A DNA stretch of 64,000 bases. It comes from Patescibacteria group bacterium. GTDB lineage: Bacteria > Patescibacteriota > Minisyncoccia > Phycocordibacterales > UBA1006. Location: assembly GCA_020428645.1 (NCBI GenBank), contig JAGQMN010000002.1, forward strand, positions 36 through 64,035. Reading direction: 5' to 3'. The notes under the pieces were generated by a model, which was not told the DNA's origin, searched no databases, and saw only the letters and a program-made list of their open reading frames with translations. Numbering within the stretch: the first letter of the stretch is position 1; the number at the start of each line of letters is the position of its first letter. Shown in pieces: positions 10,721 to 39,650 of the stretch. The position numbers and the translations under genes are program-made.

Positions 10721-11794
10721 TTAATAAAAGTAACTGTTATAAAAAACTGGGGGAAGTCTAAACCAAACCTTGTTCTTTAAATTTTTAGTAAAGCGATACT
10801 CATGTGCATGACACATCATCCCTTGGTATGAATGAAGTGATTGAAACACCTTTTCTTCACCAAGTCTACCAGATTGATACGCTTCTATACGAGCATTCAT
10901 ACAACGAATCAAGCGTTTACGTGTTTTTGTTCTTAAGATGCGGTAATGCGGCTTAACAACATAACCCAAGAAATCAATACCCTGATGTAAAGTACGTACG
11001 TTTACCTTGTGTTTATGCAACGAAAGGTGAAGTTTTTCTTGGAGAAACATTTTCACTTGTAAAAGTAATGTATCAAACTCATCTTTTGAATCAGAAAGAA
11101 TGATGAAATCATCGGTGTAACGTAAGTAGTGTTGAACCTTCAATTGATGTTTTATAAACTGGTCAAACTCATTCATATAGATATTGGCAAAAAGTTGGGA
11201 TGTTAAATTTCCAATCGGAATCCCCTGTCTGTGAAAGAGATCAGTTTGCGAAACATAGTAACTTCCGACAATATCTCGCACGAGATCCATAGTGGCAACA
11301 TCACGCACACGTTTTGTCATAATGGATAACAAAATTTGATGATCGACACTATCAAAAAATTTCTTGATATCACATTTGAGAGCAAAACATGGTTTCGTAT
11401 AGTTTTGACTCACTTTTCTCGCTAACTGTGCTAGCACTTCAACACCCTCATGATTCCCCTTCCCGATTTGGCATGAGAAAGAGGTAGCGATAAAAGTAGG
11501 TTCAAATATTGTACTCAACACACGAAACAAGGCATGATGTACAATTCGATCACGAACTGACGCTTTGGAAATGTAGCGTACTTTTGGATCACGTATATAA
11601 AAATTCGTGTACGAACCATGCTGGTAAATCTTCGCCTTTAATTCTCTATGTAATGCAAAGATATTTTCTTCAAGGTGACGTTCAAAAAACGCCACATCGG
11701 GTTTGCCACGTTTTCCTTTACTAAATTTTTCCCAAGAGAGAAAAAGGTTTTCAACCGAAATTATTTGACCATATAACTGCCTGTAAATTTTCAT
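10721..11794 (-). CDS. diversity-generating retroelement reverse transcriptase
   Basis: 357 aa with RT motifs, including the DGR-diagnostic IGNLTSQ ([I/L]GxxxSQ) and the catalytic RYTDDF. Adjacent to Avd and the TR/VR pair. Confidence 0.93.
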   Translation of the reverse strand: MKIYRQLYGQIISVENLFLSWEKFSKGKRGKPDVAFFERHLEENIFALHRELKAKIYQHGSYTNFYIRDPKVRYISKASVRDRIVHHALFRVLSTIFEPTFIATSFSCQIGKGNHEGVEVLAQLARKVSQNYTKPCFALKCDIKKFFDSVDHQILLSIMTKRVRDVATMDLVRDIVGSYYVSQTDLFHRQGIPIGNLTSQLFANIYMNEFDQFIKHQLKVQHYLRYTDDFIILSDSKDEFDTLLLQVKMFLQEKLHLSLHKHKVNVRTLHQGIDFLGYVVKPHYRILRTKTRKRLIRCMNARIEAYQSGRLGEEKVFQSLHSYQGMMCHAHEYRFTKNLKNKVWFRLPPVFYNSYFY

Positions 11795-12140
11795 GAATGA
11801 ATTCGATGTTCCTATACTTCAAAAATCGTATGACCTGTACAAACAACTTCATAGTTATCGAAGGTTGGTACCAAAACAAGATCGATACACACTCTTTGAA
11901 CGAGCTGATAATACCATGCTCGAGGTACTCTCTGGTATTTTTACAGCCAGCAATCAACCAAAAGTACAAAAATTAAAAACACTTGAAGAAGTAAGTAACA
12001 ACTTGAACCTTTTACGACTGTCAGTACGACTGATGAAAGACATAAAAGCGCTTGATAACAAGAAGTACCTCAACCTCCAATCAGACATTGAAGAAGTTGG
12101 GCGCATGCTTGGTGGTTGGATACGATCTTTAAAAGAATAA
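11793..12140 (+). CDS. avd: four-helix-bundle protein (23S rRNA IVS protein family), DGR accessory variability determinant
   Basis: 115 aa with family-typical VPKQDRYTLFERADNTMLEVL and EEVGRMLGGWIRSL. Lies between the RT and the TR but on the opposite strand. Its ATG overlaps the RT ATG (CATG at 11792-11795). Confidence 0.8.
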   Translation: MNEFDVPILQKSYDLYKQLHSYRRLVPKQDRYTLFERADNTMLEVLSGIFTASNQPKVQKLKTLEEVSNNLNLLRLSVRLMKDIKALDNKKYLNLQSDIEEVGRMLGGWIRSLKE

Positions 12141-12163
12141 AAGGGGTTACATATACGTAATAG

Positions 12164-12188
12164 AAAAGCACCATTTTGGTGCTTTTTT
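12164..12188. terminator. bidirectional intrinsic terminator between avd and the TR
   Basis: AAAAGCACC-ATTTT-GGTGCTTTTTT: a GC stem flanked by an A-run and a T-run. Confidence 0.7.
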
Positions 12189-12201
12189 AAATGGGTGGGT
12201 A

Positions 12202-12313
12202 TTTCGGAAGGAAGAACGAGGCGGAGCCATACTTCGCGTTCACATTCGAAACCGAGTTGGTGCCAGCCTTGACCTTGCCATCGTTGAAGTCCAGATACGG
12301 AGCGTGACCGAAG
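12202..12313 (-). repeat. DGR template repeat (TR)
   Basis: 112-nt repeat of 12698-12809 (offset 496). 88 of 89 non-adenine positions (minus-strand sense) are identical. All 23 minus-strand adenines sit in this copy. It contains AAC/AAT codons in the VR frame. Confidence 0.9.
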
Positions 12314-12594
12314 CCAAAAAGTTGTCCTCACCCATCTGTACCACCAGAGTACGAAAATAATCTCTACTGGAAATAGAGTACCCTCATAACCCTTGTATTT
12401 TACCTGAGAGCAGTCACGAACGTGACACCTCTACCAGATGAGGACAAGCAATACCCCTCCAAAAGACAACACGCTCTCGGAAACCGTAGTCGCCGTGATT
12501 CTGGTCGTCATTCTCTTTGAAGAGAGAGTTCGGTGACGATGATCCGTAGACAATCGTTCAGAAACCTAATCTCAAACACATTATAAAAGAAAAA

Positions 12595-12625
12595 GCCGAG
12601 TTGTCCATAATGTGAACAACTCGGC
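12595..12625 (-). terminator. intrinsic terminator of the DGR target gene
   Basis: Minus sense: GCCGAGTTGT-TCACATTATGG-ACAACTCGGC followed by TTTTTCTTTT. Confidence 0.75.
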
Positions 12626-12676
12626 AAAGATTTTCCGCTTCGCGGAAATAAAGGTTCAAGACCTCCACAGTATCAA

Positions 12677-12690
12677 GATTGCAAGCAATC
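12677..12690 (-). promoter_or_regulatory. small hairpin immediately 3' of the VR (candidate DGR target-recognition element)
   Basis: GATTG-CAAG-CAATC (5-bp stem, 4-nt loop), 7 nt beyond the VR end and overlapping the stop codon. Absent at the equivalent TR flank. Confidence 0.45.
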
Positions 12691-13642
12691 AAGATTCCTG
12701 CGGAAGGAAGAACGAGGCGGAGCCATACCCCGCGTACACAGGCGAAACCGAGAGGGTGCCAGCCAAGACCTTGCCATCGACGAAGACCAGAAACGGAGCG
12801 AGATCGAAGGACTCGTCCGATGGGGAATCTTTGAATTCATCCCCCGGGCAGTCAATCCACAGGTCATCGTAGTGTCGAAGACGATCGGCGTGCAGTAACA
12901 CTGCAACCAACGCCTCGAACCAACCCACGCCAAATTCATCAACGCGGAACACCTCACGAGCGCGACGTATCGAACGTCCAGCGTGACGAAGACCAAACTG
13001 CATCCATACGATTTTGATTTCGCCCTCCTGGGATGTTGATACTTCATCAAACATCGAGGTCGAGCGTGCGGATTTCTTCAGCTGGTCAGCTCCGAGCTGA
13101 CCAGCACGAAGGTTTTCAAACTTTCCTTTACGATCTTTGTTCAATAACTCCATGGCACGCTCTACTGCTGCACCGTAAGTGTCAGCGACCAAGTTCCATG
13201 GGACAACGAGCGTCCAACGTCCAGCAACTCCATTCGGTGGGGTTACCTCACCAGATGCGATACGTGCCAGATATTTACGGTCAACGTCCAGCTTTCTCAA
13301 TTCAGGGAAGAGCTTCTTGAGGGTTACTAATTCCTTTTCGAGGTCGGCAATGTTTTCAAACAAGGTGAAATCATCACCCTCTCGGTAACCGGAAAGGTAG
13401 CCGTACGTGGACGTTACCTCTTCAGATTCGTACTTGTTCGAGATCGTCAGGTCGGCAATGATCATCATACTGGCCTCTTCTAATCGGGTTTTAAATTCAG
13501 CCCCGTCGCCGAGGATACCAGTTTGAGTACCGTCTTTGGAGGGGCTTACCTTTCGTATTGCATTCTTCACCGCTTGCGTGGCGAGAATTACAACAGCGTC
13601 TGTTTGTTTAGACGTGATCAACGCTTCTTTTCTTGTTGTCAT
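12689..13642 (-). CDS. DGR target (variable) protein; the C-terminal ~38 aa are encoded by the VR
   Basis: 317-aa ORF whose last codons (FDLAPFLVFVDGKVLAGTLSVSPVYAGYGSASFFLPQES) overlap the VR. I could not see an N-terminal signal peptide or TM helix. Confidence 0.85.
   Translation of the reverse strand: MTTRKEALITSKQTDAVVILATQAVKNAIRKVSPSKDGTQTGILGDGAEFKTRLEEASMMIIADLTISNKYESEEVTSTYGYLSGYREGDDFTLFENIADLEKELVTLKKLFPELRKLDVDRKYLARIASGEVTPPNGVAGRWTLVVPWNLVADTYGAAVERAMELLNKDRKGKFENLRAGQLGADQLKKSARSTSMFDEVSTSQEGEIKIVWMQFGLRHAGRSIRRAREVFRVDEFGVGWFEALVAVLLHADRLRHYDDLWIDCPGDEFKDSPSDESFDLAPFLVFVDGKVLAGTLSVSPVYAGYGSASFFLPQES
12698..12809 (-). repeat. DGR variable repeat (VR) at the 3' end of the target gene
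   Basis: 16 of the 23 TR adenine positions are substituted here with mixed bases. There is one non-adenine mismatch (12804) at the 5' boundary. Confidence 0.9.
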
Positions 13643-26007: not shown

Positions 26008-26641
26008 TGTCTGCATCAGGTGATCGCGCGACCCCCCACAACTTTTAATAGTATATACGTGATATATTTTAACTATGTATTACGTATACGTTCTCAAGAG
26101 TGAAAAAGATAGTAAACATTATATTGGTTACACAAACGACCTCAAGAGAAGGTTTGAAGAACATAATCAAGGTAATAATCTTTCAACAAGAAACAGAATT
26201 CCGTTTGAGTTAATATATTATGAAGCGTATACGCATAAATCACTAGCAATACGTAGAGAAAATAAATTAAAGGAGTTTAAAAATTCTTACACTCAATTAT
26301 TCAAGAGAATATATGAATAGTATTAAAAGTTGTGGGGGGAGTGAGGAAAGTCCGGACACGTACCTTTTATAGGTAAAACGGTAGCAGGTAACGCCTGCCG
26401 GGAGCAATTCTAGGGATGCGAGCAGTGACGCCCAAGCCGAGAGGCGATGGCTCCCCCACCATAGCATGGTGGGGGATGAATCCTCTGGTAACAGAGGGGT
26501 GAAACGGCAAAATTCCTACCTACGTGCAAGGTCGTACCCCCCACAATTCTTTGTGGGGGGAGTGCCGCAAAGAATCGCATGGCGACATGTGGTCAAGATA
26601 AATGATCATCCCAGACAGAATCCGGCTTATCGATGCAAACA
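26008..26641 (+). ncRNA. rnpB: RNase P RNA (bacterial type A) with a 270-nt insertion in P3
   Basis: CR-I GAGGAAAGTCCGGAC at 26343-26357, GGTAACGCCTGCC, GGGGTGAAACGGCA, and CR-V ACAGAATCCGGCTTATC at 26615-26631. P1 pairs 26008-26017 with 26632-26641. P2 pairs 26019-26025 with 26604-26610. P3 is the 19-bp helix 26032-26050 / 26321-26339. Confidence 0.88.
26075..26320 (+). CDS. GIY-YIG nuclease family protein, encoded inside the RNase P RNA P3 loop
   Basis: 81 aa: YYVYVLKSEKDSKHYIGYTNDLKRRFEEHN...R...E. GIY-YIG core with conserved Arg, Glu and Asn. The stop codon abuts the 3' arm of the P3 helix. Confidence 0.85.
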   Translation: MYYVYVLKSEKDSKHYIGYTNDLKRRFEEHNQGNNLSTRNRIPFELIYYEAYTHKSLAIRRENKLKEFKNSYTQLFKRIYE

Positions 26642-26678
26642 GTATGAAAAATCACAGGTATTCCCTGTGATTTTTTAC

Positions 26679-27783: not shown

Positions 27784-29049
27784 ATGTCTGAATCAAACAA
27801 ATCAAACAAAGATATCCTGCAGGCACCTCGCGGAATGCGTGATTTTTATGGTACACCATACCAACAGAAGAGTAATTTTTTTGAGTACGCACGTATGATT
27901 GCATCATCATATGGTTTTACAGGTATCGAAACGCCAATTCTTGAACATACTGAGATTTTTTTGAAAGGAATTGGAGAAGGTACCGACATCATCGATAAAG
28001 AAATGTACAACTTAACGACGCTCGGAGGTGATCGGTTAACGCTCAAACCAGAAGGTACCGCACCGATCATGCGTGCCTACATTGAACACGGTATGGGTGC
28101 ACTACCTCAACCGCAACTGTTTTATTACGAGAGTCCTTTTTTCAGACACGATAAACCACAGAAAGGTCGATATCGACAATTTTACCAATTCGGTCTTGAA
28201 ATTATGGGATCACGCGATCCATTGTATGATGCACTCACCATCGAGGTCGGATATCGAATCATTCAAAAAACTGGAAAAAAAGTGGTAGTGAAGATCAATA
28301 GCCTCGGGACACGTGACATTCGTGCATCGTACACCGAAACACTCGTCGCGTTTTATAGAGAACACCAATCAAAACTTGCCGAGGGTGACCAAGAACGTAT
28401 TGATACAAACCCATTCAGAATTCTTGATTCAAAAGAACCAGAAACCGTTACTGTTAATCAATCAGCACCGACTCTCATTGAAAGTCTAGACAAAGCATCA
28501 CGTGACCACTTTACCTCTGTCACTGATACTTTGGATGGCCTTGATATTCCATACGAAATTAATCCATTCCTTGTTCGTGGTATGGACTATTACGAACACA
28601 CCGTGTTTGAATACGTAACTTACGATAATGAGAATCAGGAATCATTTGCACTTGGCGGTGGTGGTCGCTACGACGGACTTGCAGAACTCATTGGTCACAC
28701 CACCTCAATTCCTTCAGTAGGACTTGGTCTGGGGGCTGATCGTATTATAGAAATCAGCGATGATACATTTACTACGAACCCGGGGGATAGAATACCTATG
28801 ATTGTCACCGAAAATTCATTGTATGTACATGCGTCACAACTACTCCAAAAATGTACGAATAACAAATTGTTTATGTACCCGCTCTTTACCAAGATTGGAA
28901 AGCAAATGAGCCGTATCGAAAAAGAGGGCTATACTCGTGTCTGTATTATCGGAGAAGATGAAGCGACCAACCAACAGGTTACTTACAAAGACCTCACTAC
29001 TGGCGAACAACGAACACTGTCGTATAAAGAACTCAACAACCTCTCGTAG
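27784..29049 (+). CDS. hisS: histidyl-tRNA synthetase
   Basis: 421 aa: PRGMRDF, LKPEGTAPIMRAY, FRHDKPQKGRYRQFYQFG, GGGGRYDGL. Confidence 0.95.
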   Translation: MSESNKSNKDILQAPRGMRDFYGTPYQQKSNFFEYARMIASSYGFTGIETPILEHTEIFLKGIGEGTDIIDKEMYNLTTLGGDRLTLKPEGTAPIMRAYIEHGMGALPQPQLFYYESPFFRHDKPQKGRYRQFYQFGLEIMGSRDPLYDALTIEVGYRIIQKTGKKVVVKINSLGTRDIRASYTETLVAFYREHQSKLAEGDQERIDTNPFRILDSKEPETVTVNQSAPTLIESLDKASRDHFTSVTDTLDGLDIPYEINPFLVRGMDYYEHTVFEYVTYDNENQESFALGGGGRYDGLAELIGHTTSIPSVGLGLGADRIIEISDDTFTTNPGDRIPMIVTENSLYVHASQLLQKCTNNKLFMYPLFTKIGKQMSRIEKEGYTRVCIIGEDEATNQQVTYKDLTTGEQRTLSYKELNNLS

Positions 29050-29092: not shown

Positions 29093-29638
29093 ATGACAAC
29101 TATAGTCCAAGTAGGAAAAAAAGTGCTCCGCATGAAAGCACAAGAAGTACCAAAAGATGCTATTGCCTCGCCCGAAATACAGGGTGTGATAGCGCGTATG
29201 AACGAAGCGCTCGCCACCCAAAATGATGGGGTTGCTATTGCCGCACCACAAATTGGTGAATCCTATCGTATCTTTACGATTTCACCTGTTGTATTTGAAG
29301 AACCTGGTGATTACCATTTGGTCTACATCAATCCTGAAATAATGGAGGTGTCTAAGAAAACAAAGCTCTTGAATGAAGGGTGCCTCTCGTGTCGTTGGAA
29401 AATTGGCGATGTAGAAAGACACCTAACGGCAACGGTTCGGGCATATGACGAATATGGTAACCAATTTACTGAATCAGCTGACGGACTCCTCGCACATATT
29501 TTCCAACACGAAACCGATCACCTTGATGGTATTCTCTTTATCGACAAAGCAGAAAATCTGCGCGATATGACTGAGGAAGAAATTAATGAGGTACTCCAAG
29601 AAAATGCATCCCCACGGTACGACCAAATTAAAGACTAA
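29093..29638 (+). CDS. def: peptide deformylase
   Basis: 181 aa from the ATG at 29093: GVAIAAPQIG, EGCLS, HETDHLDG. The track ORF starting at 28937 is an upstream extension that overlaps hisS. Confidence 0.93.
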   Translation: MTTIVQVGKKVLRMKAQEVPKDAIASPEIQGVIARMNEALATQNDGVAIAAPQIGESYRIFTISPVVFEEPGDYHLVYINPEIMEVSKKTKLLNEGCLSCRWKIGDVERHLTATVRAYDEYGNQFTESADGLLAHIFQHETDHLDGILFIDKAENLRDMTEEEINEVLQENASPRYDQIKD

Positions 29639-29650
29639 CAGAAAAAAATA

Positions 29651-29679
29651 AAAACCACAGCCAAATGGCTGTGGTTTTT
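29651..29679 (+). terminator. intrinsic terminator after def
   Basis: AAAACCACAGCC-AAAT-GGCTGTGGTTTTT. Confidence 0.8.
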
Positions 29680-29752
29680 ATTGAACATGTCACAAACTAA
29701 ATTATGCTATGTGAACATATTTATACGTCATAACATAGTGGTATGAAATAAT

Positions 29753-29855
29753 TAAGAGAGGTTCTCTGTCATTCAGCGACAGATCGGGCGATGATACTTC
29801 ATCTAAGTATCATCGCCCGAATCCGGGACTGAATAGAATACCTCGTGTATCTATT
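29753..29855 (+). repeat. island end motif, copy 1 (TAAGAGAGGTTCT plus hairpins)
   Basis: TAAGAGAGGTTCTCTGTCATTCAGCGACAGATCGGG-[hairpin 29785-29819]-CCCGAATCC. Same architecture as 31119 and, inverted, 35528. Confidence 0.7.
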
Positions 29856-30019
29856 TTCTTCCTCCCCTCACTTTTACTAGACAGCAAAAGTGAGGGGATA
29901 AAAAAGTCGAATTTTACCTGACTGGATGGTATTCAACAAGACCATAACCTATTTAATTAAGATGCTCATCCCGAAGGATTCCCGAAATGGCTTTGCCATT
30001 TCGGGACCTAAACCTAGGT
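29856..30019 (-). repeat. island junction module J1
   Basis: Read on the minus strand: stop, 18-nt palindrome, hairpin 29980-30006, CCUUCGGG 29968-29979, degenerate AT hairpin, TTTTTTAT, variable hairpin 29864-29897, AGGAAGAA. Confidence 0.6.
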
Positions 30020-30415
30020 TTAGGATTTTTTTAACTTCGCTCCCCAACTATCAGCGAGGTTCTCTAGGGTTGGATCTTTTTTCTCTGATTTTTTAAAAAA
30101 ATCTTTCCCTACGGCAACCTCCTGGTCAGGACAATCTCTCTCGTTTACAAAACGAGAGGCAATCTCTTCTGCCCAGCCTAAGGGTGCAATGAGGAGTTTC
30201 CAACCCTCGCTTCCAGAACCTCCATACGTAGTAGTCTCCGATAAAATTCTAAGATTATTATCAGAATGAACAGAGAAAGCTGGCCATCTTTTTGCTCCGG
30301 ATCCCGGTCTATACTCTTGAACCAGGACAAGTTCTTGATTACAAGAACTTTTTTCATCAATTTCTCTCAAAAAGATTTTATCTTCTGAGGAAATGAAAAC
30401 ATTAGCAGCATACAC
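30020..30415 (-). CDS. hypothetical protein (island gene A)
   Basis: 131-aa ORF with a GTG start (uncertain). No recognisable family. Lies between the intact def and the displaced def 3' fragment. Confidence 0.45.
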   Translation of the reverse strand: MYAANVFISSEDKIFLREIDEKSSCNQELVLVQEYRPGSGAKRWPAFSVHSDNNLRILSETTTYGGSGSEGWKLLIAPLGWAEEIASRFVNERDCPDQEVAVGKDFFKKSEKKDPTLENLADSWGAKLKKS

Positions 30416-30453
30416 ATATCCCTCACTCTTATTGGAGGTTGCGAGATGGTTTT

Positions 30454-30546
30454 GATCACCTCGACGGTGTATTGTTCATCGACAAAGCACGTAAATTACG
30501 CGACATGACTGATGAAGAAATTAATGAGGTTTTACAGAAAAAATAG
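30454..30546 (+). pseudogene. displaced 3' fragment of a peptide deformylase gene
   Basis: Translates to DHLDGVLFIDKARKLRDMTDEEINEVLQKK*, which parallels def residues DHLDGILFIDKAENLRDMTEEEINEVLQEN (29516-29605). By eye about four fifths of nucleotides are identical. No 5' part is present. Confidence 0.85.
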
Positions 30547-30547
30547 T

Positions 30548-30995
30548 ATGGAAAAATTCAACGACAATCAAAAAAAAAGAGAAAGAGCCTGAGTTCGATG
30601 AGTTTCCAAAAGAATTTGGTAGATACTATCATGGTTCACCGCATAACGTAGAGGAATTATTAAGTCCAAAAGAAAGCGGAAATATTAGACCTGGTGAGGA
30701 AGTGAGACGATCTTTTAAGGATGTAGTATTTCTCACTAAGGATATACAACAAGCGGTACAATATGCTGGTCCTGGTGGAGTAGTCTACCATGTAGATGCT
30801 GACGCAGTCCGGTACAAAGACATTGCTGCTACATATCTCAATCCTAAAAAACTAAAATCAGTGAGCGAAAATATTTATGTTGCAAAACCTGAAGATATCG
30901 AAATGGTAGTCAAGTGGGTAAAGCAAGCAAATAGAAGAAAAAATGAACCTGAAAAGTATGTGGATTACTATGTTAAGAAATCACCTGAGCGATAG
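30548..30995 (+). pseudogene. frameshifted small gene (island gene F) with a YHGSP motif; broken or slippage-dependent at an A9 tract
   Basis: The ATG at 30548 opens a 14-codon frame that stops at 30590. The long frame (open from 30528, ending at 30995) has no ATG/GTG/TTG before 30702. Losing one A from the A9 run at 30570-30578 fuses the two into about 149 aa. Confidence 0.6.
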
Positions 30996-31052
30996 TAGAC
31001 CAACGTATTTATTGTGTCGATTTTTACTCAAAGTCATAAACAATTAACGAGG

Positions 31053-31092
31053 ACTCGTCTCCTATCAAACTTTTGTTTAAGTGGAGACGAGT
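31053..31092. terminator. hairpin between gene F and end motif copy 2
   Basis: ACTCGTCTCC-(20 nt)-GGAGACGAGT, a 10-bp stem. No clean T-run, so terminator function is tentative. Confidence 0.4.
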
Positions 31093-31118
31093 ACCAGCTA
31101 TAGTAACTAATACTTCAA

Positions 31119-31232
31119 TAAGAGAGGTTCTCTGTCATTCAATGACAGGTCGGGTGGTAATCATGATATGTAATCATGATTACCACCCGAATTTGTAATT
31201 CAATAATATTCTCACTTATATGCACAGAAACG
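31119..31232 (+). repeat. island end motif, copy 2
   Basis: TAAGAGAGGTTCTCTGTCATTCAATGACAGGTCGGG-[hairpin 31151-31189]-CCCGAATTT. The flanks are identical to copy 1, while the internal hairpin has a different sequence and is still fully paired. Confidence 0.7.
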
Positions 31233-31335
31233 TTCTTCCTCCGACACCACTTCTCTTCTTAACTTATGAAAAGAAGTGGTGTCGGATAAAAAAGGCAATT
31301 TTTTGAAGAAATTGCCAGAAAACTTTATGCACTAA
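31233..31335 (-). repeat. island junction module J2
   Basis: Minus sense: stop, AAAGTTTTCT, hairpin GGCAATTT/AAATTGCC (31294-31316), TTTTTTAT, variable hairpin 31241-31285, AGGAAGAA. Confidence 0.6.
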
Positions 31336-32382
31336 TTAAGAATTTAAAAATTTTTCCATTATAATTTCTGCTTCGTAATCATCATCCAAATTCTTGTCAC
31401 AAAAATCATATCTTTGTGTTGTTTGTAAATTACGATAAAAAAACTTTTCTCTTTCTTCTAAAGACATTTCTTTGAAGAAATTCATTATAGGATTATTTTT
31501 TAATTGCTTATAATGATCCTGCAACTTTTTTTCAAGTTTTTTCATTTCTGATAAAATTTTTTTCATTGTAACAATGTCATATTCTGAGTGTTTTACTGGT
31601 TGTTTTTTTAAACACCTCGTCACACGTTTATTGCCTGATGATTCGCGATATCCATCAGGCATCGAAGAGGGGTCAGAGACAAGAATATCTTCACTTGCTC
31701 TTAATACCCATTTATTACCTTCAAACACAGCAGCACAACCCCAAGAAATTTTGAATAGCTCTTTATTGTGGTATTTTCTAAATTTCTCAAAAACCTTTGG
31801 TTTTTGAGGTACAATTGTTGTATTGTTTAGAAACGCGCTGATGATGACCTCTGTTGGAAAATTAAACTTAAGTAGACTACTTATTTTCCGGGTGGTGAAG
31901 TCAGACGAGCAAAAACTTCTATTCAAAGATTTATATCTTTTGATAATAGCCCTTCTTGTACGAATCACATCTTTATTCGGTTTGAATTGATGGATATGTC
32001 CATATGTTAACTGTAATTCTTCTTTTTTAAGATTATTACAATAAACTTGAAAATCTATTTGTTCTTTTGATAAAGTCTTCCTTAAAGACTCTGATCTAGC
32101 ATATAGAAAATCTATGGCTTCTTTTTTGCTTATTCTTTTCAAATACACAACTGGATGCACTTTGTCTGGATACTTGATTGCTCTTTTCTCCAAATCAATA
32201 CAAGAGCTTTCAGCTCCACTTAAAATTTTATAAGCCTCCTCCACATAAGAGAGATAGTATTCTGCATATTGATAATTTTCAACTCTGTCATCTTCATTAA
32301 ATGAATAATAAGGAGTATGAATTACCTTTACATTAATTTTATTTTCCTTTCTGTGAATAAGGAATGAACTATTTTTTGACAT
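31336..32382 (-). CDS. hypothetical protein (island gene B), very AT-rich
   Basis: 348-aa ORF with no recognisable motifs. Confidence 0.55.
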   Translation of the reverse strand: MSKNSSFLIHRKENKINVKVIHTPYYSFNEDDRVENYQYAEYYLSYVEEAYKILSGAESSCIDLEKRAIKYPDKVHPVVYLKRISKKEAIDFLYARSESLRKTLSKEQIDFQVYCNNLKKEELQLTYGHIHQFKPNKDVIRTRRAIIKRYKSLNRSFCSSDFTTRKISSLLKFNFPTEVIISAFLNNTTIVPQKPKVFEKFRKYHNKELFKISWGCAAVFEGNKWVLRASEDILVSDPSSMPDGYRESSGNKRVTRCLKKQPVKHSEYDIVTMKKILSEMKKLEKKLQDHYKQLKNNPIMNFFKEMSLEEREKFFYRNLQTTQRYDFCDKNLDDDYEAEIIMEKFLNS

Positions 32383-32389
32383 AATTTAT

Positions 32390-32445
32390 ATATTTAAACG
32401 TTAGCCAAAACTTCCATCAGAAAGCCAAAGCTAACGTTTAAATAT
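32390..32445 (-). promoter_or_regulatory. start-proximal leader hairpin of gene B
   Basis: 16-bp perfect stem ATATTTAAACGTTAGC/GCTAACGTTTAAATAT with a 24-nt loop that begins TTTGG on the minus strand. Ends 7 nt before the ATG. Confidence 0.6.
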
Positions 32446-32638
32446 GATCATGAAATATTTTCTACAGGCAGGTTTTGCCGTTGGCAAAACCTGCCTGATA
32501 AAAAAGATAATGTTTTGTTTTTAGGCTCCATTATCAAAAGACCTTTATATAATATTTACTCCACACCACGTGGAAATTTTATTTCCCCGAAGGGTTAGCA
32601 TTCTTGGAAACCAATCCAAGAATGCTATTTTAGAAACA
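32446..32638 (-). repeat. island junction module J3
   Basis: Minus sense: stop, hairpin 32596-32627 (loop TTGGTT), CCCUUCGGGG 32585-32594, GATAATG/CATTATC hairpin, TTTTTTAT, variable hairpin 32465-32497, TAGAAAAT. Confidence 0.6.
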
Positions 32639-33463
32639 CTATGATTGCGTTCCACCAGCAAAACCCCGGTTCGGATTCCCGTAAGTATCCGAAATTCCGA
32701 GATCCGCAGCATTATCTAAAAATGCTTGAACGGTGGCTGCGTCACCGTTTAGCATTACCTTCTGCTCAAATCCTGGACGTGAGTCCACGTGAGCGAGAAA
32801 GCTTTTACCGGTCATGGTGCCGGCCTCTACCATAAATGGTAGAGCTCCATTTTTGCGGAAATCAGGAACCTCCTGATCCCCAACGGTAATGGTTGCCGTT
32901 GGATTTTCCAAAAGCGCTACGCACTTTTGGATTTCCTTTTTCGCTTCGTCTTCGCTTACGCGTTGACGAGCACATAGTTCGGGCAAACGAATTGCCAGAA
33001 CTTCCTCGGGCGTTACCCCAGGGCACTCGCCCTGGTACGCCGCGCCGAGGCAGTGATCAGCTGCAGCAATCACTCGCTGCTTTTGATCCAGTTGCAGACC
33101 AAGCAAGTCTGCAACCTGCCCCAGTGAGCTCCCTGCCTCAAAATCGGCAGGGGTAGCCGCAAACCCGGGGTCTCCAGGTTTGTGGTGGTCAACCACGATT
33201 TTTTCCTGCTTGATAGAATAACTATCAGCAGGGGTACACTCGATCAGAACCATCTGATCAAATGCGTCCACCTCGATTTCTTCTCCATTTTTGGAGATAA
33301 TTGAAGTGAATTTCCCGGCAGTGTCGGGGAAACACCGTTTAGTATTTCCTTCCCTGTCGGGTGCCGCGGCATAACCAACGGCAATATTTTTTTGTGCAAG
33401 CAATGCTTCTATTGCTTGCATTTCGATGTCGTTAGCACCGAGGATAAAAATTTGATTGCTCAT
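32639..33463 (-). CDS. hypothetical protein (island gene C), possible DHH-like phosphoesterase; visibly higher G+C than its neighbours
   Basis: 274 aa. VVDHHKPGDPG resembles DHH motif III, and there are N-terminal ILGANDIEM and C-terminal FAGG motifs. Assignment is weak. Confidence 0.55.
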   Translation of the reverse strand: MSNQIFILGANDIEMQAIEALLAQKNIAVGYAAAPDREGNTKRCFPDTAGKFTSIISKNGEEIEVDAFDQMVLIECTPADSYSIKQEKIVVDHHKPGDPGFAATPADFEAGSSLGQVADLLGLQLDQKQRVIAAADHCLGAAYQGECPGVTPEEVLAIRLPELCARQRVSEDEAKKEIQKCVALLENPTATITVGDQEVPDFRKNGALPFMVEAGTMTGKSFLAHVDSRPGFEQKVMLNGDAATVQAFLDNAADLGISDTYGNPNRGFAGGTQS

Positions 33464-33777
33464 ATTTTTATACTCTGCTGGGACAGAGATTCTATTTATT
33501 CCCAGAATTACTGAATTTTTTGCGGAGAATTACAGTCATGCTCCGTCTCGCTATCTGCCACGCTGGTGTCCCCACCTTTTGCAGAAATGTTATGCGTGGT
33601 ACTTGGCTGCGCCGTTCCTCGCGAGATTTTCTATGAGTTTTCTACCGAGATTGCTTTGCTTTCGCTCGCAATGACACGGTACAAAACTCAATAAAAAAGT
33701 CGATTTTTGAAAAGAATCGACAGAAACTTTTTAACCAATCTGAAACCATAGGCACCATACCTGCGGTTTCAAAAAAA
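33464..33777 (-). repeat. island junction module J4 plus a GC-rich structured leader of gene C
   Basis: Minus sense: stop, hairpin, TGGTTAAAAAGTTTCT, hairpin 33699-33721, TTTTTTATT, long hairpin 33635-33689, ATAGAAAAT, then nested helices CTCGC/GCGAG (33547-51 with 33621-25), CCACGC/GCGTGG (33558-63 with 33594-99) and GGTG-TCCC-CACC (33565-76). Confidence 0.55.
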
Positions 33778-34509
33778 CTAAGATTCCCAAATTAACTCTG
33801 GAATCAAAACTCCAGAGTGACGAATCAGAAAAATAATATCCTCTACCATTTTGAGAGGGTATTTTTTTCTTAACTCCATTTCATAATACTCCAGGGCTGT
33901 TTCCAGCCCATATTCTCTTTCAAGATTTTCAAAAAAATCTGAATTCAGAGTATCCCCCTCACCCTTACCAGAAATAAGGTCTTGGTAAGATACCCCTACT
34001 TCCTTTAATCTCTCTCGAGCCTCAAAGAAAAATAAAATAGTTTTCTTTTCTTCTTCGCTCGTTTTAAGGATCTCAAGATAATCCTCGAGATCCTTTGAAC
34101 GCCCCTCCGCTAAAAGGGCTTTTTCTTTCTTATGTCGTATTGCAAACTCACGACTGCAATACGCTGGATTTTTTTGATCAGCTTCTGGTAGCTGATCATT
34201 TACGAGAATATCAACGACCCTTTGGTCGTCTTTTCCTAATAGAAGTCCCGCGTCGAGGACCTCTGTCCATTTCATAAACCCCGAAGGACTCTCGAGGTGT
34301 TTGGTTGTGGATCCATCCTGAAAGTCCATCGTGGCTATCAGGATCTTTTTTATTTTTTCCATGTCCTTGGTCGAGGACACTATCACGTCAACGTCTCTTA
34401 TCTCCCTCGAGATAAGATTGTGTTTTTTAAGAACCATAGAACCTACGATTCTTAAATTTATTTTTTTTGAAATGTTTTCCAACATCTCAGTAATTTTGAT
34501 ATTTTTCAT
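33778..34509 (-). CDS. Pol-beta superfamily nucleotidyltransferase-domain protein (island gene D)
   Basis: 243 aa. RIVGSMVLKKHNLISREIRDVDVIV fits the hG[GS]-x(9-13)-DhD NTase signature. Helical C-terminal half. Confidence 0.6.
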   Translation of the reverse strand: MKNIKITEMLENISKKINLRIVGSMVLKKHNLISREIRDVDVIVSSTKDMEKIKKILIATMDFQDGSTTKHLESPSGFMKWTEVLDAGLLLGKDDQRVVDILVNDQLPEADQKNPAYCSREFAIRHKKEKALLAEGRSKDLEDYLEILKTSEEEKKTILFFFEARERLKEVGVSYQDLISGKGEGDTLNSDFFENLEREYGLETALEYYEMELRKKYPLKMVEDIIFLIRHSGVLIPELIWES

Positions 34510-34516
34510 GGTTTTA

Positions 34517-34567
34517 ATTTTAAAGTTACCTAAAATCTCTAACAGAGACCAAAGGTAACCTTAAAAT
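34517..34567 (-). promoter_or_regulatory. start-proximal leader hairpin of gene D
   Basis: 14-bp stem (one mismatch) ATTTTAAAGTTACC/GGTAACCTTAAAAT with a 23-nt loop that begins TTTGG on the minus strand. Ends 7 nt before the ATG. Confidence 0.6.
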
Positions 34568-34720
34568 AATACTTATGAAAATATTTCAGGTTTTCTTCCT
34601 TCGGTGGATTTTACTACATAAAACCCACCGAATAAAAAAGTCGATTTTTGAAAAGAATCGACGGAACTTTTTAACCATTCCCCGAAGGGAACCCAAGCCA
34701 GCGACCAAGCTGGCTTGGGT
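34568..34720 (-). repeat. island junction module J5
   Basis: Minus sense: stop, hairpin 34691-34720 (loop TTGGTC), CCCUUCGGGG 34680-34689, TGGTTAAAAAGTTCC, hairpin 34640-34662, TTTTTTATT, variable hairpin 34601-34631, AAGGAAGAA. 34632-34677 is near-identical to 33691-33737. Confidence 0.65.
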
Positions 34721-34957
34721 CTATTGCCAGAATTTCCATGTTTCTATGCTATTTCTAATCTGGCGTATTTCCTCTCTGGTAAGTTCCTCTACCGAGGAAC
34801 TTGTTTGAATGGATTTGATCATGTTAAAGAAGTTTTGAACTTCTTTAACTTCATCGATCAGACGACATTTCGCCTGAAAACTCTACTTCCCTTTCTCTGA
34901 AAGGGATTCCACTAGATGCTGGTTGCATCTTTCTAATTCTTGTTTTAAATTTCCCAT
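34721..34957 (-). pseudogene. small helical ORF (island gene E) interrupted by an in-frame TAG
   Basis: Own translation: MGNLKQELERCNQHLVESLSEKGK*SFQAKCRLIDEVKEVQNFFNMIKSIQTSSSVEELTREEIRQIRNSIETWKFWQ*. The amber codon at 34883-34885 is in frame with the ATG at 34957 and the stop at 34721. Confidence 0.4.
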
Positions 34958-34961
34958 TTTA

Positions 34962-35048
34962 CTTGTTTTGGTGAACTTTGGTTTCTTACTCAGATTCTGA
35001 ATCAAGTCCAGAATGATAAACCAAAAAACCAAAGTTCACCAAAACAAG
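34962..35048 (-). promoter_or_regulatory. start-proximal 23-bp perfect inverted repeat upstream of gene E
   Basis: CTTGTTTTGGTGAACTTTGGTTT (34962-34984) pairs with AAACCAAAGTTCACCAAAACAAG (35026-35048). The 41-nt loop begins TTTGG on the minus strand. Ends 4 nt before the ATG. Confidence 0.6.
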
Positions 35049-35515
35049 ATAAATATGAAAAGCTCTCTTGAAATTTCCAAATCATTTGGGATTCCAAGAG
35101 AGTGTGACGTAGTCAAATGTATGATGTTGTTTGACTACCTCCCACTCTCTTTCAAGAGTTTGTGTCCAGCGGTAGTTCATACTTCTGCTGCGCGTGTTGT
35201 TCGCCCGTCGTCAAAGTATGATCTACGTGGTATGAAATTATTAAGGTACCATCCTTTCTTCACCTCTCTTACATTAGCAACCCGAGATTCTGAAGCTGTC
35301 TGCCCTTAGGTAGGACGATGTCAGAATGACGAGCGACTTGGTAAAGAAATTTCTGGAGACGAAGGTGGTTAGTCTTCCCCGTCCAGCAGATTTCTTTATC
35401 AATCTGTCTTTATCAGATATCCACCAGTGACGAGTTCCGGTCGTGTGGTAGATTCTGAATGGAACGGTTGGTGTGCCCTCAGCGCCGTTTGCACCAACCC
35501 CGTATTGATTTGCAA
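35049..35515 (-). other. ORF-free region rich in paired segments (candidate large ncRNA or element-end structure); strand uncertain
   Basis: No ORF of 60 aa or more that I trust. There are many nested inverted repeats, e.g. CTCTCTTGAAA/TTCCAAGAGAG, GAGAGTG/CACTCTC enclosing GTAGTCAAA/TTTGACTAC, and GGTTGGTG/CACCAACC. Confidence 0.35.
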
Positions 35516-35528
35516 AGAACCTCTCTTA
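35430..35528 (-). repeat. island end motif, inverted copy
   Basis: The reverse complement reads TAAGAGAGGTTCTTTGCAAATCAATACGGGGTTGGTG...CACCAACCGTTCCATTCAGAATCTACC. Its 13-nt terminus matches 29753 and 31119, followed by the same CGGG-hairpin-CCG layout. Confidence 0.6.
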
Positions 35529-35691
35529 GTCTCGTACATATCGTAGCATGTGCTTGACATAGTGTCAATACAGTGTGACCATATTTTACAAACTATGAAT
35601 AATATTATGACATTGTATTAAAAAATATTGATTTTCAATACGATTTAGTCATGTGCTTGTGACATTTTAAATCTTTTGGTACTATACCAGT

Positions 35692-36459
35692 ATGGAAAAT
35701 ACGCAAACCATACAACAGCTAGAGACCTTAGGACTCTCTCGTGAACAATCACTGGTATACCTCTGCCTGCTCGATAACGGGTTTAGCAAGGCTGGTAGCA
35801 TACCGAAAAAGACAGGTTTGAAACGGGGTTTGGTGTATAAAGTTCTCGATCAGCTCATTGAACGCGGGCTTGCCAAAAAACACGGGGAAGATACTGCGGT
35901 TGCACGCTTTGCCCCACTCTCTCCTGAAGGATTAAAATCACTCGTGGAAGAGAAACTTCGAGCTGCTGAAGCACACCAGGAACTCTTTAAGGATCTCTAC
36001 AGCCCACTTAAATCTAAATTCAATCTGTTAACGGGACGGCCAAGTGTACGGTACTACGAGGGTCACGATGAGGTTCGAGAGATGCTTTACGACTGTCTCG
36101 AAACAACAGGCGTCATCTACACCTACGCTGATGCCGACATGGTAGCCGAACACTTTCCTGATTTAAATAAGGAACATATTGCCGAAAGGCATGAACGCGG
36201 TATCGCAAAGAGAATTCTTGTTGCAGACAGCAAACACGGTCGACAGACCAAGAAGGACTCGCTGAAAGACGATCTAACCGACATACGGATTATCGAAAAA
36301 GAATATCTCCCCTTTAGCGCCGTTGCAGAAATATACGACAATAAAGTTGCCTATATTACCTCATCAGATATTGGAATATCTGGGGTATTGATTGAAGATC
36401 GACAAATTGCCACCATGCAAAAATTTATGTTTGAAGCTCTGTGGGAGCAATCACAATAG
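35692..36459 (+). CDS. TrmB-family transcriptional regulator
   Basis: 255 aa with an N-terminal winged helix (LETLGLSREQSLVYLCLLDNGFSKAGSIPKKTGLKRGLVYKVLDQLIERGL) and a TrmB-type C-terminal domain. Confidence 0.75.
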   Translation: MENTQTIQQLETLGLSREQSLVYLCLLDNGFSKAGSIPKKTGLKRGLVYKVLDQLIERGLAKKHGEDTAVARFAPLSPEGLKSLVEEKLRAAEAHQELFKDLYSPLKSKFNLLTGRPSVRYYEGHDEVREMLYDCLETTGVIYTYADADMVAEHFPDLNKEHIAERHERGIAKRILVADSKHGRQTKKDSLKDDLTDIRIIEKEYLPFSAVAEIYDNKVAYITSSDIGISGVLIEDRQIATMQKFMFEALWEQSQ

Positions 36460-36492: not shown

Positions 36493-39114
36493 CTATTCTG
36501 CTTGTTTTTCGTCAGGGTTAAGTTCTCGTTTATGCTCTAACACAACATAGTGCTTTCCTGTTGTATTATCAGTAAAGGAATGTGTCATAACGCCATGTTC
36601 CAATTGTGATCTATCAAAATCACGAGGATTATCGAGCACTAGAATATCAATACCTTTGGCGGTACTATATTCACCACTTCTAATTCCTTCTCGGGTAAAA
36701 CTCCGAGATAAGTAGCTGGTGTTTGCTTGATTATCCCAAACCAAATTAAGTGCATGAACACCTTCATACTTTGCAGCGGAAACAGCAACGAATCCCATGT
36801 CCAAGTATCGAGAACAAGCACTACCTGACATGTTTGCTTCAGCGTGTAGTACGTGTTCGTGAGCTTCTTTGGTTAATGCCTGAGCAATCATCGCCTCTCC
36901 TAATGCGTAGCCTTGAGATTCTTTTGCTACGTTTAACGCGCTGGCAAATTTACTTCCGTCTGGATTTGATTCAAAACGAATAAACGCATTAAGTTCATTA
37001 TTGATGCGATAAGTATAAAATTCACTATTGGTTTTGCTTTGAAAAGCTGTAGTAAATTGATTGATGAGTATGTGTCTCGTTTGGGGATCATACTGTTTAT
37101 TGTTTTCAGTATAGATCTCCAACATCTCCATCTGTTCCGGGATAGAGATGTCAGCGATATTTTTATGTTGAAACTCGGAACCCTTAATATCCTCTAACGT
37201 TAAATCAAAACCAAGTTTTCGAGCAAATTTAAAAGTAGAGAGTGTTGCTATAGCATCAGCAGAAATCTTCGATAATTCATTTTCAATAAGATGAACGGTG
37301 TCTAGTGTATCTGTTTCTTTGAGTGCATCGATGCGATTATAAAAAATATTTAATACGCTCACGCCTTTTTGTAGAATATTATCACAAACCCGGTCGATGA
37401 TTTCTGGATCATCTGCAATCTCATGAGAAAATTCTGATGTAATAAATGCCTCTATCCCCTTGGTTGCATCCACCAGTTCTGAATATTTAGTAAAAATAGC
37501 GTTTGCTGATTCTGAGGGAAGCTTTTCTGCAAGATCAAGAATTTTTTGACTCATTTCTGACCCACCAATATCAAGAGAAAGAAAAGCGCGTAAAATATTG
37601 TTACTATTCAAATCTTCATTTTTTAAGATAGTTTCAAGGGTGTTCCATTCATTTTGTTTTGTACCAGCTAGATAGTCGAGAAATTGTACCTGTTCATCAA
37701 GATACATTTCCCTCACATCAACACCAAACTCATGTTTGATTATCCATCTTACTTCAGGTGTATGCATAGATGAGATTAAACCAGCGTCTTTATTTTTAAT
37801 AACCTCGTTATACGGTGCGGGATGCACCGTAATTCTATTCTTCAATTTTTCATGAAGATATTTTTTCATGACAAAATAATCAAGTGATAATAACTCTTTC
37901 TTCTTTTTTTGAAATTGTTGAGCAATTTCTGGACTCTGATTTTTAATGTTCCAATCACAATAATCCAATCGATCACGGAGAAAAAATGAAAAATCAGTCT
38001 CATTGAGTTCATCTACATTTTTTCCTAAACCCTTACTTTCTTGCAAAAACGAGAGGAGGTCTTGATAGGTATGGTCATATACTTCGGCATTAACCCCTTC
38101 GAAAAAAACATTATTATTTTGAGTTCGGTAATCTTGAGAGACAAACAACCCAAAGGAAGATTGTAAACCATTAGAAAGGGAAAAATAATCTTTGGACACC
38201 TGTTGGATCCCTGCTGATCGATAGAAAGGGGAATTTAAATTTTCAACATAGTATCGAGTAGCGTTTTCTAAATGTTCATTATTGTTCGTGGTTATATTAT
38301 CATAATGACTATGTAAAAATTCACTTACCTCTCCGGTTTCCTCTTGTTTTTCTAAATCTTCAATGAGATGTAAATTGTAGTCAGCAAGTAAGTTTAATAA
38401 GGGTAGATTAAACTCTTCTTTGATACAGTGAATTATTTCAATACCTTTTAGATATGCATGGTGTGCACTCTCGTAACCTACACTCTGTGCATCAAGAGTA
38501 ATTCTTGCAATCGTTTTTAAAAAAATAATCTTTTTTTCATCTGAAAGAGATTGTACATAGTGTTTTATAGAATCACTAAGAGAATTTTCATATTCGAAAG
38601 ATATATTATAAACAACTTCTCCTGTGGTATGGTAGACAAGATTGTCCATACATCCAGAATTATTCATCTCCCCTAAAGCCAAAAAATAATTATTAACATC
38701 ATACGAAAGAAGTGGGGCAAGAATATTTGGACTACGCCCAAAAAAGTTTTCCTTAACAAATTGAATAAAATCATCTTTTTTTGATATTTCTATTTCTTGA
38801 GAGTAAAAAATTTCTTCTAGCTTATCTCTTAACAAGAGAACAAACTCATGGGTAAGGTCTGAGACTTCTTTTGTGACCAAATGATCTTCAGGACCACTCC
38901 CAAGTAGCGTTTTCATTTTTCGTTCAATGGGATTGGAAAAATACTTATTATCCCCATCAAGAGATCCAGACAAAAGAGTATCAAAGTAATCTTGGGTAAA
39001 TGTTCTGAATTCAGTTTTAATGTCTTCAAAATTTTCAATATGCTCTTTCACTTCAGGATTGACATTATTAAATTCTTTTTTCGTATTATCTTTTTTATAA
39101 GCCTCAGGATTCAT
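36493..39114 (-). CDS. large hypothetical protein with a probable C-terminal GNAT acetyltransferase domain
   Basis: 873 aa. The last ~170 aa carry a GNAT motif-A-like ESQGYALGEAM in a beta-alpha context. The N-terminal ~650 aa have no recognisable family. Confidence 0.5.
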   Translation of the reverse strand: MNPEAYKKDNTKKEFNNVNPEVKEHIENFEDIKTEFRTFTQDYFDTLLSGSLDGDNKYFSNPIERKMKTLLGSGPEDHLVTKEVSDLTHEFVLLLRDKLEEIFYSQEIEISKKDDFIQFVKENFFGRSPNILAPLLSYDVNNYFLALGEMNNSGCMDNLVYHTTGEVVYNISFEYENSLSDSIKHYVQSLSDEKKIIFLKTIARITLDAQSVGYESAHHAYLKGIEIIHCIKEEFNLPLLNLLADYNLHLIEDLEKQEETGEVSEFLHSHYDNITTNNNEHLENATRYYVENLNSPFYRSAGIQQVSKDYFSLSNGLQSSFGLFVSQDYRTQNNNVFFEGVNAEVYDHTYQDLLSFLQESKGLGKNVDELNETDFSFFLRDRLDYCDWNIKNQSPEIAQQFQKKKKELLSLDYFVMKKYLHEKLKNRITVHPAPYNEVIKNKDAGLISSMHTPEVRWIIKHEFGVDVREMYLDEQVQFLDYLAGTKQNEWNTLETILKNEDLNSNNILRAFLSLDIGGSEMSQKILDLAEKLPSESANAIFTKYSELVDATKGIEAFITSEFSHEIADDPEIIDRVCDNILQKGVSVLNIFYNRIDALKETDTLDTVHLIENELSKISADAIATLSTFKFARKLGFDLTLEDIKGSEFQHKNIADISIPEQMEMLEIYTENNKQYDPQTRHILINQFTTAFQSKTNSEFYTYRINNELNAFIRFESNPDGSKFASALNVAKESQGYALGEAMIAQALTKEAHEHVLHAEANMSGSACSRYLDMGFVAVSAAKYEGVHALNLVWDNQANTSYLSRSFTREGIRSGEYSTAKGIDILVLDNPRDFDRSQLEHGVMTHSFTDNTTGKHYVVLEHKRELNPDEKQAE

Positions 39115-39287: not shown

Positions 39288-39650
39288 TTATACAAAAGAC
39301 AGCACAATGAGGAGGAGTCCAATAATTGAGACATTTCCCATAAAGGTGTGCATCTCTTGAATGCGTTGCGCGGGATCAGTAACTTTCCAAAACCGATGCA
39401 TAACGAGGGTTACTAATACAAAGAATATCAGTAACAACACTGTCCCCCACCACGGATTGTACCAAGCAATGTAGGAGAGCCCTCCAAGCATTAAGAGTAT
39501 TCCCGTAACGAGTGTTGCAAGCGTTGGAAGAGGAACACCCTTGCTGCGAGCCATGTTACTCAGCTTGCTCAGTCCTGAAAAATGATTAATGCCAGCAAAG
39601 AGCATGAGTCCTCCAAAGAGTAATCGTCCAATAAGAATAACGATATCCAT
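39288..39650 (-). CDS. DoxX family membrane protein
   Basis: 120 aa with four TM helices and the typical N-terminus IGRLLFGGLMLFAGINHF. Confidence 0.75.
   Translation of the reverse strand: MDIVILIGRLLFGGLMLFAGINHFSGLSKLSNMARSKGVPLPTLATLVTGILLMLGGLSYIAWYNPWWGTVLLLIFFVLVTLVMHRFWKVTDPAQRIQEMHTFMGNVSIIGLLLIVLSFV

Follow-up and report, generated by a model that had tools for sequence, protein, structure and literature searches.

A diverged second copy of the peptide deformylase 3' end at the border of a variable island in a Patescibacteria genome

What kind of event leaves a second 3' end of an essential gene behind an intact first one? The question is raised by the peptide deformylase gene (def) of a Patescibacteria group bacterium (assembly GCA_020428645.1), in a stretch of 64,000 nucleotides of contig JAGQMN010000002.1 (positions 36 to 64,035 of the forward strand; hereafter the window, to which all coordinates refer). 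A first-pass annotation had noticed that the last ~90 nt of the def coding sequence (29516-29605) recur at 30454-30546 as a diverged orphan copy, with its own stop codon and no 5' part, and had read the pair as the trace of an element that integrates into the 3' end of def and supplies a replacement end. The duplication is confirmed here. We find that the orphan begins with DNA of another lineage, and on balance we lean towards explaining it as the scar of a single insertion, by which foreign DNA from beside def came to lie at the border of a variable island.

The two def 3' ends and the def locus in relatives

The def gene is intact and sits 3' of hisS, and its product is identical to NCBI protein MCA9351896.1 (Table 1). 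In the repeat search, family D4 pairs 29516-29604 with 30454-30542 (89 nt, 78% identical), and a separate count gives 67 of 87 nt and 25 of 30 aa identical between the working end (copy A, translated as DHLDGILFIDKAENLRDMTEEEINEVLQEN) and the orphan (copy B, translated as DHLDGVLFIDKARKLRDMTDEEINEVLQKK and closed by TAG at 30544-30546). When the 89-mer was slid along both strands of the window, 69 of 89 positions matched at the orphan and 45 of 89 at the runner-up position. The 100 nt 5' of each copy align with a score of 14.0, against a shuffle mean of 14.2; because this similarity is no better than that of shuffled sequence, the left edge of the orphan is sharp at 29516/30454, which corresponds to def codon 142. 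Contigs of four samples (L001, L003, L004 and L005), 99.8-99.96% identical to the window, have both copies; with the same arrangement in four independent assemblies, the repeat does not stem from faulty assembly.

Within the 848 nt that separate the copies lie an 11-codon extension of the def tail, a hairpin terminator, a structured repeat (from 29753 on) and a minus-strand gene (gene A). The present tail, found in every strain contig, gives a def product of 181 aa, the longest among the homologs examined. With the orphan tail the product would have 171 aa, which is usual for the best-matching homologs.

Copies A and B differ at 20 of 87 nt, with 13 of the 20 differences at third codon positions. 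The proportion of differing synonymous sites is 0.70 (saturated) and that of non-synonymous sites 0.12, with a ratio of non-synonymous to synonymous divergence (dN/dS) of 0.07. Such strong purifying selection implies that both copies were working def ends until recently, and the excess of third-position differences that nearly all of the divergence arose while each belonged to a working def gene. From the same orientation and close spacing of the copies one might suspect that the def 3' end was locally duplicated in tandem and diverged in place, but a non-functional local copy could not have evolved saturated synonymous sites at this dN/dS, and the orphan shares 97% identity with the functional def end of another species, as described below. 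This explanation, like that of an assembly artefact, with which the agreement of the four assemblies is at odds, is effectively refuted.

The uninterrupted arrangement, for which the def loci of relatives were compared, is seen in three of them (L012, L015 and L022). They share with the window the gene order DUF192, lepB, hisS, def, with def identities to the window of 68%, 73% and 76%, respectively, and in all three DoxX/DUF378/fmt, or fmt directly, begins within ~40 nt of def. In the window, 9.65 kb of non-syntenic DNA lies between def and DoxX, and this island is absent from the three relatives.

Origin of the orphan and the junction beside it

Compared with every def locus in hand, the first 74 nt of the orphan are identical at 72 of 74 positions to the functional def 3' end of P0007, a sequence assembled twice independently (L121 and L122, from two samples). 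A match of at least 72 of 74 has a probability of ~1e-5 if 80% identity is expected. The same stretch of the orphan agrees at 53 of 60 positions with P0005, a sister strain of P0007, and at 45 of 60 with copy A, and the 5' part of P0007 def agrees with window def at 289 of 423 positions (68%). Past nucleotide 74 the orphan has no relation to P0007. Copy A is 73-75% identical to P0005/P0007 def over its first 60 nt, the same level as in the adjacent native 150 nt upstream, and since the two divergences are equal, this part of copy A behaves as native. Judged by these matches, the first 74 nt of the orphan are demonstrably xenologous and derive from the P0007 lineage, another, co-occurring species; the orphan is therefore not simply a displaced native end. 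Window-type and P0005-type contigs share samples ERZ27309266 and ERZ27309317, where the lineages could have exchanged DNA.

Exchange at def is also visible outside the window. P0005 and P0007 def differ at 2 sites over nucleotides 175-428, at 7 sites over nucleotides 429-483 and completely after nucleotide 497; downstream, P0005 shows the conserved arrangement and runs on into fmt, and in P0007 an unrelated, short open reading frame (ORF) follows. This pattern implies that a def 3' module was exchanged in that lineage too, together with the DNA downstream of it. The left boundary of the swap falls at codon 142-146, the place where the window orphan starts. P0007 is known from 0.8-kb contigs, which are too short to reveal an island. 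A protein-level screen of 120 def homologs for further swaps gave no usable signal, because the C-terminal module is too conserved and insertions and deletions distorted the ungapped comparison.

Within the window lineage itself, hisS carries tracts of single-nucleotide polymorphisms at 28083-28275, 1.3 kb upstream, where L001 has 20 mismatches in 121 nt and L009 13 in 145 nt while both are ~100% identical elsewhere. The tracts have common sites and different ends and, on this pattern, are mosaic recombination from a diverged lineage. In contig L011 (JGI 3300025847, protein P0001), hisS and the 5' part of def are 100% window-type and the def 3' end is 100% L012-type, the switch lying within a shared stretch of 23 nt (window 29522-29544) and the contig ending 16 nt past the stop codon. 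L011 is a natural recombinant between species or else a chimera produced in assembly, and it was set aside as evidence.

The right end of the 848-nt interval is also informative. Gene A encodes a member of an uncharacterised 156-198-aa family whose homologs (P0129-P0135) all carry 40-55 conserved N-terminal residues that are missing from the window gene, right at the junction, and no def similarity exists upstream of 30454. Position 30453/30454 thus joins a 5'-truncated gene to a 5'-truncated def fragment, and the 938-bp unit is therefore a fragment and not an intact element. Elsewhere, homologs of gene A form the second gene of an overlapping two-gene operon in islands of small uncharacterised genes. 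The upstream overlapping partner is missing here.

On the other side of the orphan, the start codon of a small accessory gene (gene X) lies 1 nt past the orphan stop. Gene X contains a +1 frameshift within an A9 run (30570-30578) that is identical in the four independent assemblies, and its homologs (P0123 and P0125-P0127; 143-148 aa) match the repaired 148-aa reading. Gene X is either a pseudogene or is read by slippage. As a natural neighbour of def, gene X was considered and rejected: its homologs adjoin aspS, cca and other genes, never def, and have no shared flanks.

Could the orphan be what is left of a complete second def gene? A xenologous def would have arrived with gene X in an acquired island and later lost its first 141 codons, the same deletion taking with it the 5' part of gene A and the partner gene upstream of it. 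The joint is indeed flanked by truncated genes that face each other, the partner of gene A that is present in other genomes is gone, the orphan retains a coding-like pattern and a stop codon, and a frameshift has already occurred in gene X, whose ATG is coupled to the orphan. Two def genes no more than 10 kb apart are nevertheless found in none of ~90 genomes, the homologs of gene X never adjoin def, and the deletion endpoint would have to coincide by chance with the boundary of the P0005/P0007 module at codon 142. We regard a decayed second def as distinctly improbable. A tandem full-length def paralog, named in the first-pass annotation as what would refute its reading, was seen in none of the ~90 related def loci.

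The reading that we favour, the insertion scar, has short DNA from the region downstream of def in a co-occurring species of the P0005/P0007 clade becoming joined at the def 3' end, at a position that forms the left border of the strain-variable island. It would have entered by DNA uptake followed by short-homology or illegitimate joining, and not by the action of a dedicated recombinase. Two versions can be formulated. In a Campbell-type version, a circularised fragment of ~0.94 kb would have carried def from codon 142 through its stop, together with the terminator, structured repeat and a portion of gene A, and would have recombined by a crossover where the sequences are identical over a short distance close to the def 3' end (29576-29592); the present 14-codon tail would then be foreign, the native tail LQKK* would have been left on gene X, and the orphan would be a hybrid. 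In the second version, a foreign fragment that starts within the donor def at codon 142 and carries gene X would have been joined illegitimately into gene A of a resident island, and the entire working def would be native. Both versions fit equally well, and in both 30453/30454 would be the illegitimate breakpoint between two truncated genes, with def remaining intact.

The crossover of the Campbell-type version would fall in the 17-nt block that is the longest identical run between the copies (the remainder of the repeat is 75% identical), and the identity of the orphan to P0007 stops inside this block. It is a tempting candidate for a crossover point. Runs of at least 17 nt occur, however, in 10.7% of codon-position-preserving permutations (p ~0.11), so the block is not statistically significant.

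Several observations speak against an insertion scar of this kind. The donor arrangement, whether def followed by terminator, structured repeat and gene A or def followed by gene X, was observed nowhere, the source lineage is represented solely by its 0.8-kb contigs, and P0005 strains have fmt directly after def and lack the structured repeat. RecA-type recombination is very inefficient at 25-30% divergence, and the sole perfect identity on offer is the 17-nt block, which is not distinguishable from chance. Up to three junctions near codon 142 (the orphan edge, P0005/P0007 and the possibly chimeric L011) would fit a sequence-specific recombinase better. The parallel layout of the two units, in each of which the def 3' end is followed after 0.1-0.6 kb by a structured repeat, would be explained only if donor and recipient shared this architecture.

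The variable island and the search for a mobile element

Beyond gene X the island holds three minus-strand genes, repeated hairpin and terminator modules and a 0.8-kb ORF-free stretch (31336-35528). Pfam, NCBIfam and PHROGs assigned none of the three genes to a family. The first (31336-32382, 348 aa, 30% GC) encodes a protein with no homolog among 1.84 billion protein cluster representatives, and the second (32639-33463, 274 aa, ~50% GC) has a weak match to DHH-family hydrolase models in the defence-system library PADLOC. The guanine-plus-cytosine (GC) content of the island swings between 30% and 53%. In the 243-aa product of the third gene (33778-34509), a nucleotidyltransferase-like GS...DxD pattern was noted by eye.

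The best promoter-like site of the region (35540-35568, minus strand) consists of TTGACA, a 17-nt spacer and TACGAT, with TG upstream. It lies 11 nt upstream of an inverted copy of the repeat motif, is directed into the island and is divergent from the TrmB-family regulator gene at 35692. An island in L119 that carries a gene A homolog likewise adjoins a divergent TrmB gene and has repeated upstream elements of 140 nt.

Several contigs break off or change at the left border of the island: five of the ten that carry the window def end at 29636-29772, within 140 nt of def, three further def contigs end at 30925, and L006 diverges from the window at ~30106, inside gene A. This suggests that the population is heterogeneous at the island border just after def. 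On the right, DoxX, fmt and YgjV are 61-76% identical to those of relatives at the amino acid level, which is ordinary divergence, and import of the whole island along with its right flank is therefore ruled out.

No sign of an active mobile element was found at the def locus. Searches with Pfam, NCBIfam, PHROGs and PADLOC revealed no recombinase, integrase, transposase or phage family in the scanned ORFs of 29.6-39.3 kb, nor did six-frame Pfam analysis of the ORF-free segment 34680-35600 or the inspection of ten further ORFs elsewhere in the window reveal a recombinase, although the genome outside these regions may encode one. Orphan def ends were absent from 80 genome loci and about a dozen metagenome loci (~90 in all), and a hidden Markov model of the C-terminus, applied to 108 sources translated in six frames, matched the window's own lineage only. 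Viral contigs contained no def 3' fragment of this type. An empty-site or excised form was not found in the protein collection, where the 90% cluster of the window def has two members, neither with the orphan tail. A phage origin was rejected, as there was no blastn match in 50,697 phage records and PHROG hits were negligible.

The structured repeat between def and gene A has a second copy that is placed relative to copy B as the first is to copy A. The two show 86% identity over 43 nt (repeat D9) and a local alignment score of 57 against a shuffle mean of 17, and they have a common fold in which two hairpins closed by a GAGG/CCTC helix are followed by a third hairpin and GATAAAAAAG, the long hairpin differing between copies by three compensatory pairs. 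The window has exactly four copies of the 10-mer TAAGAGAGGT, always within the island (in copies 1 and 2, at 35504-35528 and at 35262-35271). Rfam searches of 29500-35800 at gathering and E-value thresholds gave only spurious hairpin matches and none for the structured repeat; the pattern TAAGAGAGGTTCTYTGNNNWTCA, searched in metagenome and viral contigs, matched this organism's own contigs only, and the motif is absent from the def loci of the relatives. Each minus-strand island gene is also followed by an intergenic module in which a hairpin terminator ending in CTTTTTTAT precedes a second hairpin of variable sequence. Two copies of this module (33690-33740 and 34631-34680) are 94% identical over 51 nt.

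These results bear on the reading originally proposed, in which def is the target of a true integrative element or of a tandem pair of them. Its recombinase would be site-specific for a conserved sequence of the def 3' region, namely the block at codon 142 that encodes DHLDG or the one with GAAGAAATTAATGA, an element-borne def 3' module would restore the gene, and the remnant in the window would be non-autonomous or internally deleted, with its recombinase lost or acting in trans. Direct repeats of a gene 3' end around foreign DNA are the classic signature of left and right attachment sites (attL/attR), and an element would account for the presence of a 97% identical 3' module in two backgrounds, as the working end of P0007, followed there by non-syntenic DNA, and as the window orphan. 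It would also account for junctions that cluster at codon 142-150 in the window, P0005/P0007 and L011, where the coding motif is strongly conserved; purifying selection on both modules is expected of an element-borne replacement end. The atypically long present def tail, set beside an orphan tail that gives the typical length, and a structured repeat with compensatory changes that is common to both units are in keeping with an element as well, as is the inefficiency of short-homology recombination across 25-30% divergence.

Set against this are the lack of any integrase, resolvase or transposase domain in the regions scanned, the 348-aa ORF without any homologs, a repeat interval of 938 bp that ends in a truncated gene, the absence of the orphan from ~90 other def loci and from viral contigs, and the confinement of the repeat motif to this organism's own contigs. 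A tandem pair predicts a third, native def fragment, and none was found in the window, including the far end of the island, by tblastn with five C-terminal peptides or by short-word blastn. The native-looking first 60 nt of copy A argue against a crossover at codon 142, and a full-text literature search returned no publication on def as an integration or attachment site. We consider a def-targeting element possible, although rather unlikely. Of the first-pass interpretation, then, the insertion is supported, as possibly is the replaced tail, whereas an element that targets def, for which a recombinase, a significant core and recurrence would be expected, is not demonstrated.

A more far-reaching idea is that the DHLDG-coding block, in the conserved metal-binding motif of def, the GAAGAAATTAATGA block or both are a genuine attachment site of unrecognised, recombinase-poor mobile modules in Patescibacteria. 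Each module may carry a replacement def 3' end and a structured 'TAAGAGAGG' end element, cassettes may stack behind def by analogy with an integron, and the 3'-module swaps in the window, P0007 and possibly L011 may be products of one system. We think this speculative and very improbable.

Two further features were noted elsewhere in the window. A diversity-generating retroelement occupies 10721-13642 on the minus strand, and 14 of the 15 mismatches between its template and variable repeats are adenines in the template copy. Just upstream of a bacterial class A RNase P RNA, a free-standing GIY-YIG nuclease ORF is present at 26075-26320.

Table 1. Features of the window in order of position (copies A and B are the working and the orphan def 3' end; strand "." where none applies)
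Feature	Position	Strand	Basis or remark
Retroelement reverse transcriptase gene	10721-11794	-	Pfam RVT_1 E = 2e-23
Retroelement template repeat	12205-12313	-	
Retroelement variable repeat	12701-12809	-	3' end of 317-aa ORF (12689-13642)
RNase P RNA, bacterial class A	26331-26645	+	79 bits, E = 3.7e-24; below Rfam gathering score of 100
def, peptide deformylase, 181 aa, intact	29093-29638	+	Pfam Pep_deformylase E = 2.8e-43, residues 2-157
Copy A, working def 3' module, codons 142-171	29516-29605	+	Repeat D4; followed by unusually long tail to 29638
17-nt block GAAGAAATTAATGAGGT, identical in both copies	29576-29592; second copy 30514-30530	+	Mismatch map
Hairpin terminator after def, 16-bp stem, T-runs on both sides	29647-29682	.	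Terminator scan
Structured repeat copy 1	29753-29910	+	TAAGAGAGGTTCTCTG, two hairpins, TTCTTCCTCC, third hairpin, GATAAAAAAG
Gene A, 131-aa ORF, 5'-truncated	30020-30415	-	Homologs P0129-P0135 (156-198-aa family)
Breakpoint, truncated gene A (-) abutting def codon 142 (+)	30453-30454	.	No def similarity upstream of 30454
Copy B, orphan def 3' end, 30 codons + TAG	30454-30546	+	First 74 nt xenologous
Gene X, small accessory gene, frameshifted	30548-30995	+	Homologs P0123, P0125-P0127
Structured repeat copy 2	31119-31300	+	Placed relative to copy B as copy 1 to copy A
Intergenic hairpin modules	31233-31330, 32455-32510, 33640-33740, 34590-34680 (also 29857-29905)		
Rest of variable island, three genes (348, 274, 243 aa)	31336-35528	-	No useful family assignment
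Third motif copy	35504-35528	inverted	Inverted repeat I11
TrmB-family regulator	35692-36459	+	Pfam TrmB E = 6.7e-10; absent from relatives here
873-aa protein	36493-39114	-	Absent from relatives at this position
DoxX, conserved synteny resumes	39288-39650	-	Gene order in L012, L022

Comparison with known systems and significance

Integration into the 3' ends of protein-coding genes is familiar from GIsul2 at guaA and from streptococcal integrative and conjugative elements (ICEs) and integrative and mobilizable elements (IMEs) at rpsI, rplL and similar genes. SGI1 is described as integrating at trmE (PMC8409611). The window resembles such islands in that foreign DNA lies between direct repeats of the def 3' end while the target gene stays intact, and in that the target is a conserved housekeeping gene at an island border. 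Such islands have a tyrosine or serine integrase beside one attachment site, an identical attL/attR core and a recurrence in many genomes, whereas at the def locus no recombinase, significant core or recurrence was found and the repeats bracket 938 bp with a truncated gene. The locus cannot be filed as one of these islands.

Homology-facilitated or short-homology illegitimate recombination after DNA uptake is known from Acinetobacter and Streptococcus pneumoniae. The def locus is like these cases in combining diverged foreign DNA, one short homologous anchor and one illegitimate end, in having truncated genes at the joint and in requiring no recombinase gene. It differs from them in that they usually replace recipient DNA, whereas the window keeps a tandem repeat of the anchor, and in that they rely on longer and better-matched anchors; the def locus offers 17-90 nt at 77% identity. 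A third likeness is to flexible genomic islands that are swapped via flanking core genes, as the content between def and DoxX/fmt is strain-variable, divergence in the flanking hisS and def is mosaic, and contigs stop at the border of the island. A simple double crossover in the flanks would not leave an orphan copy of the flank behind, and the window orphan thus needs an extra illegitimate or Campbell-type step.

The def locus adds an example to a known kind of event and is, barring mobility at the level of reads, of modest interest; its general importance is modest because it is a single-lineage scar without a demonstrated mechanism. It does provide a concrete footprint of DNA exchange between co-occurring Patescibacteria species, 74 nt at 97% identity against a background of ~70%, adjoining an essential gene at the border of a strain-variable island. 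Patescibacteria have tiny genomes with few recognisable mobile elements, and little is known of how their variable islands turn over. The case is suggestive of recombination anchored at conserved coding motifs of flanking core genes in these organisms; if a recombinase is involved, def would be a new kind of attachment site.

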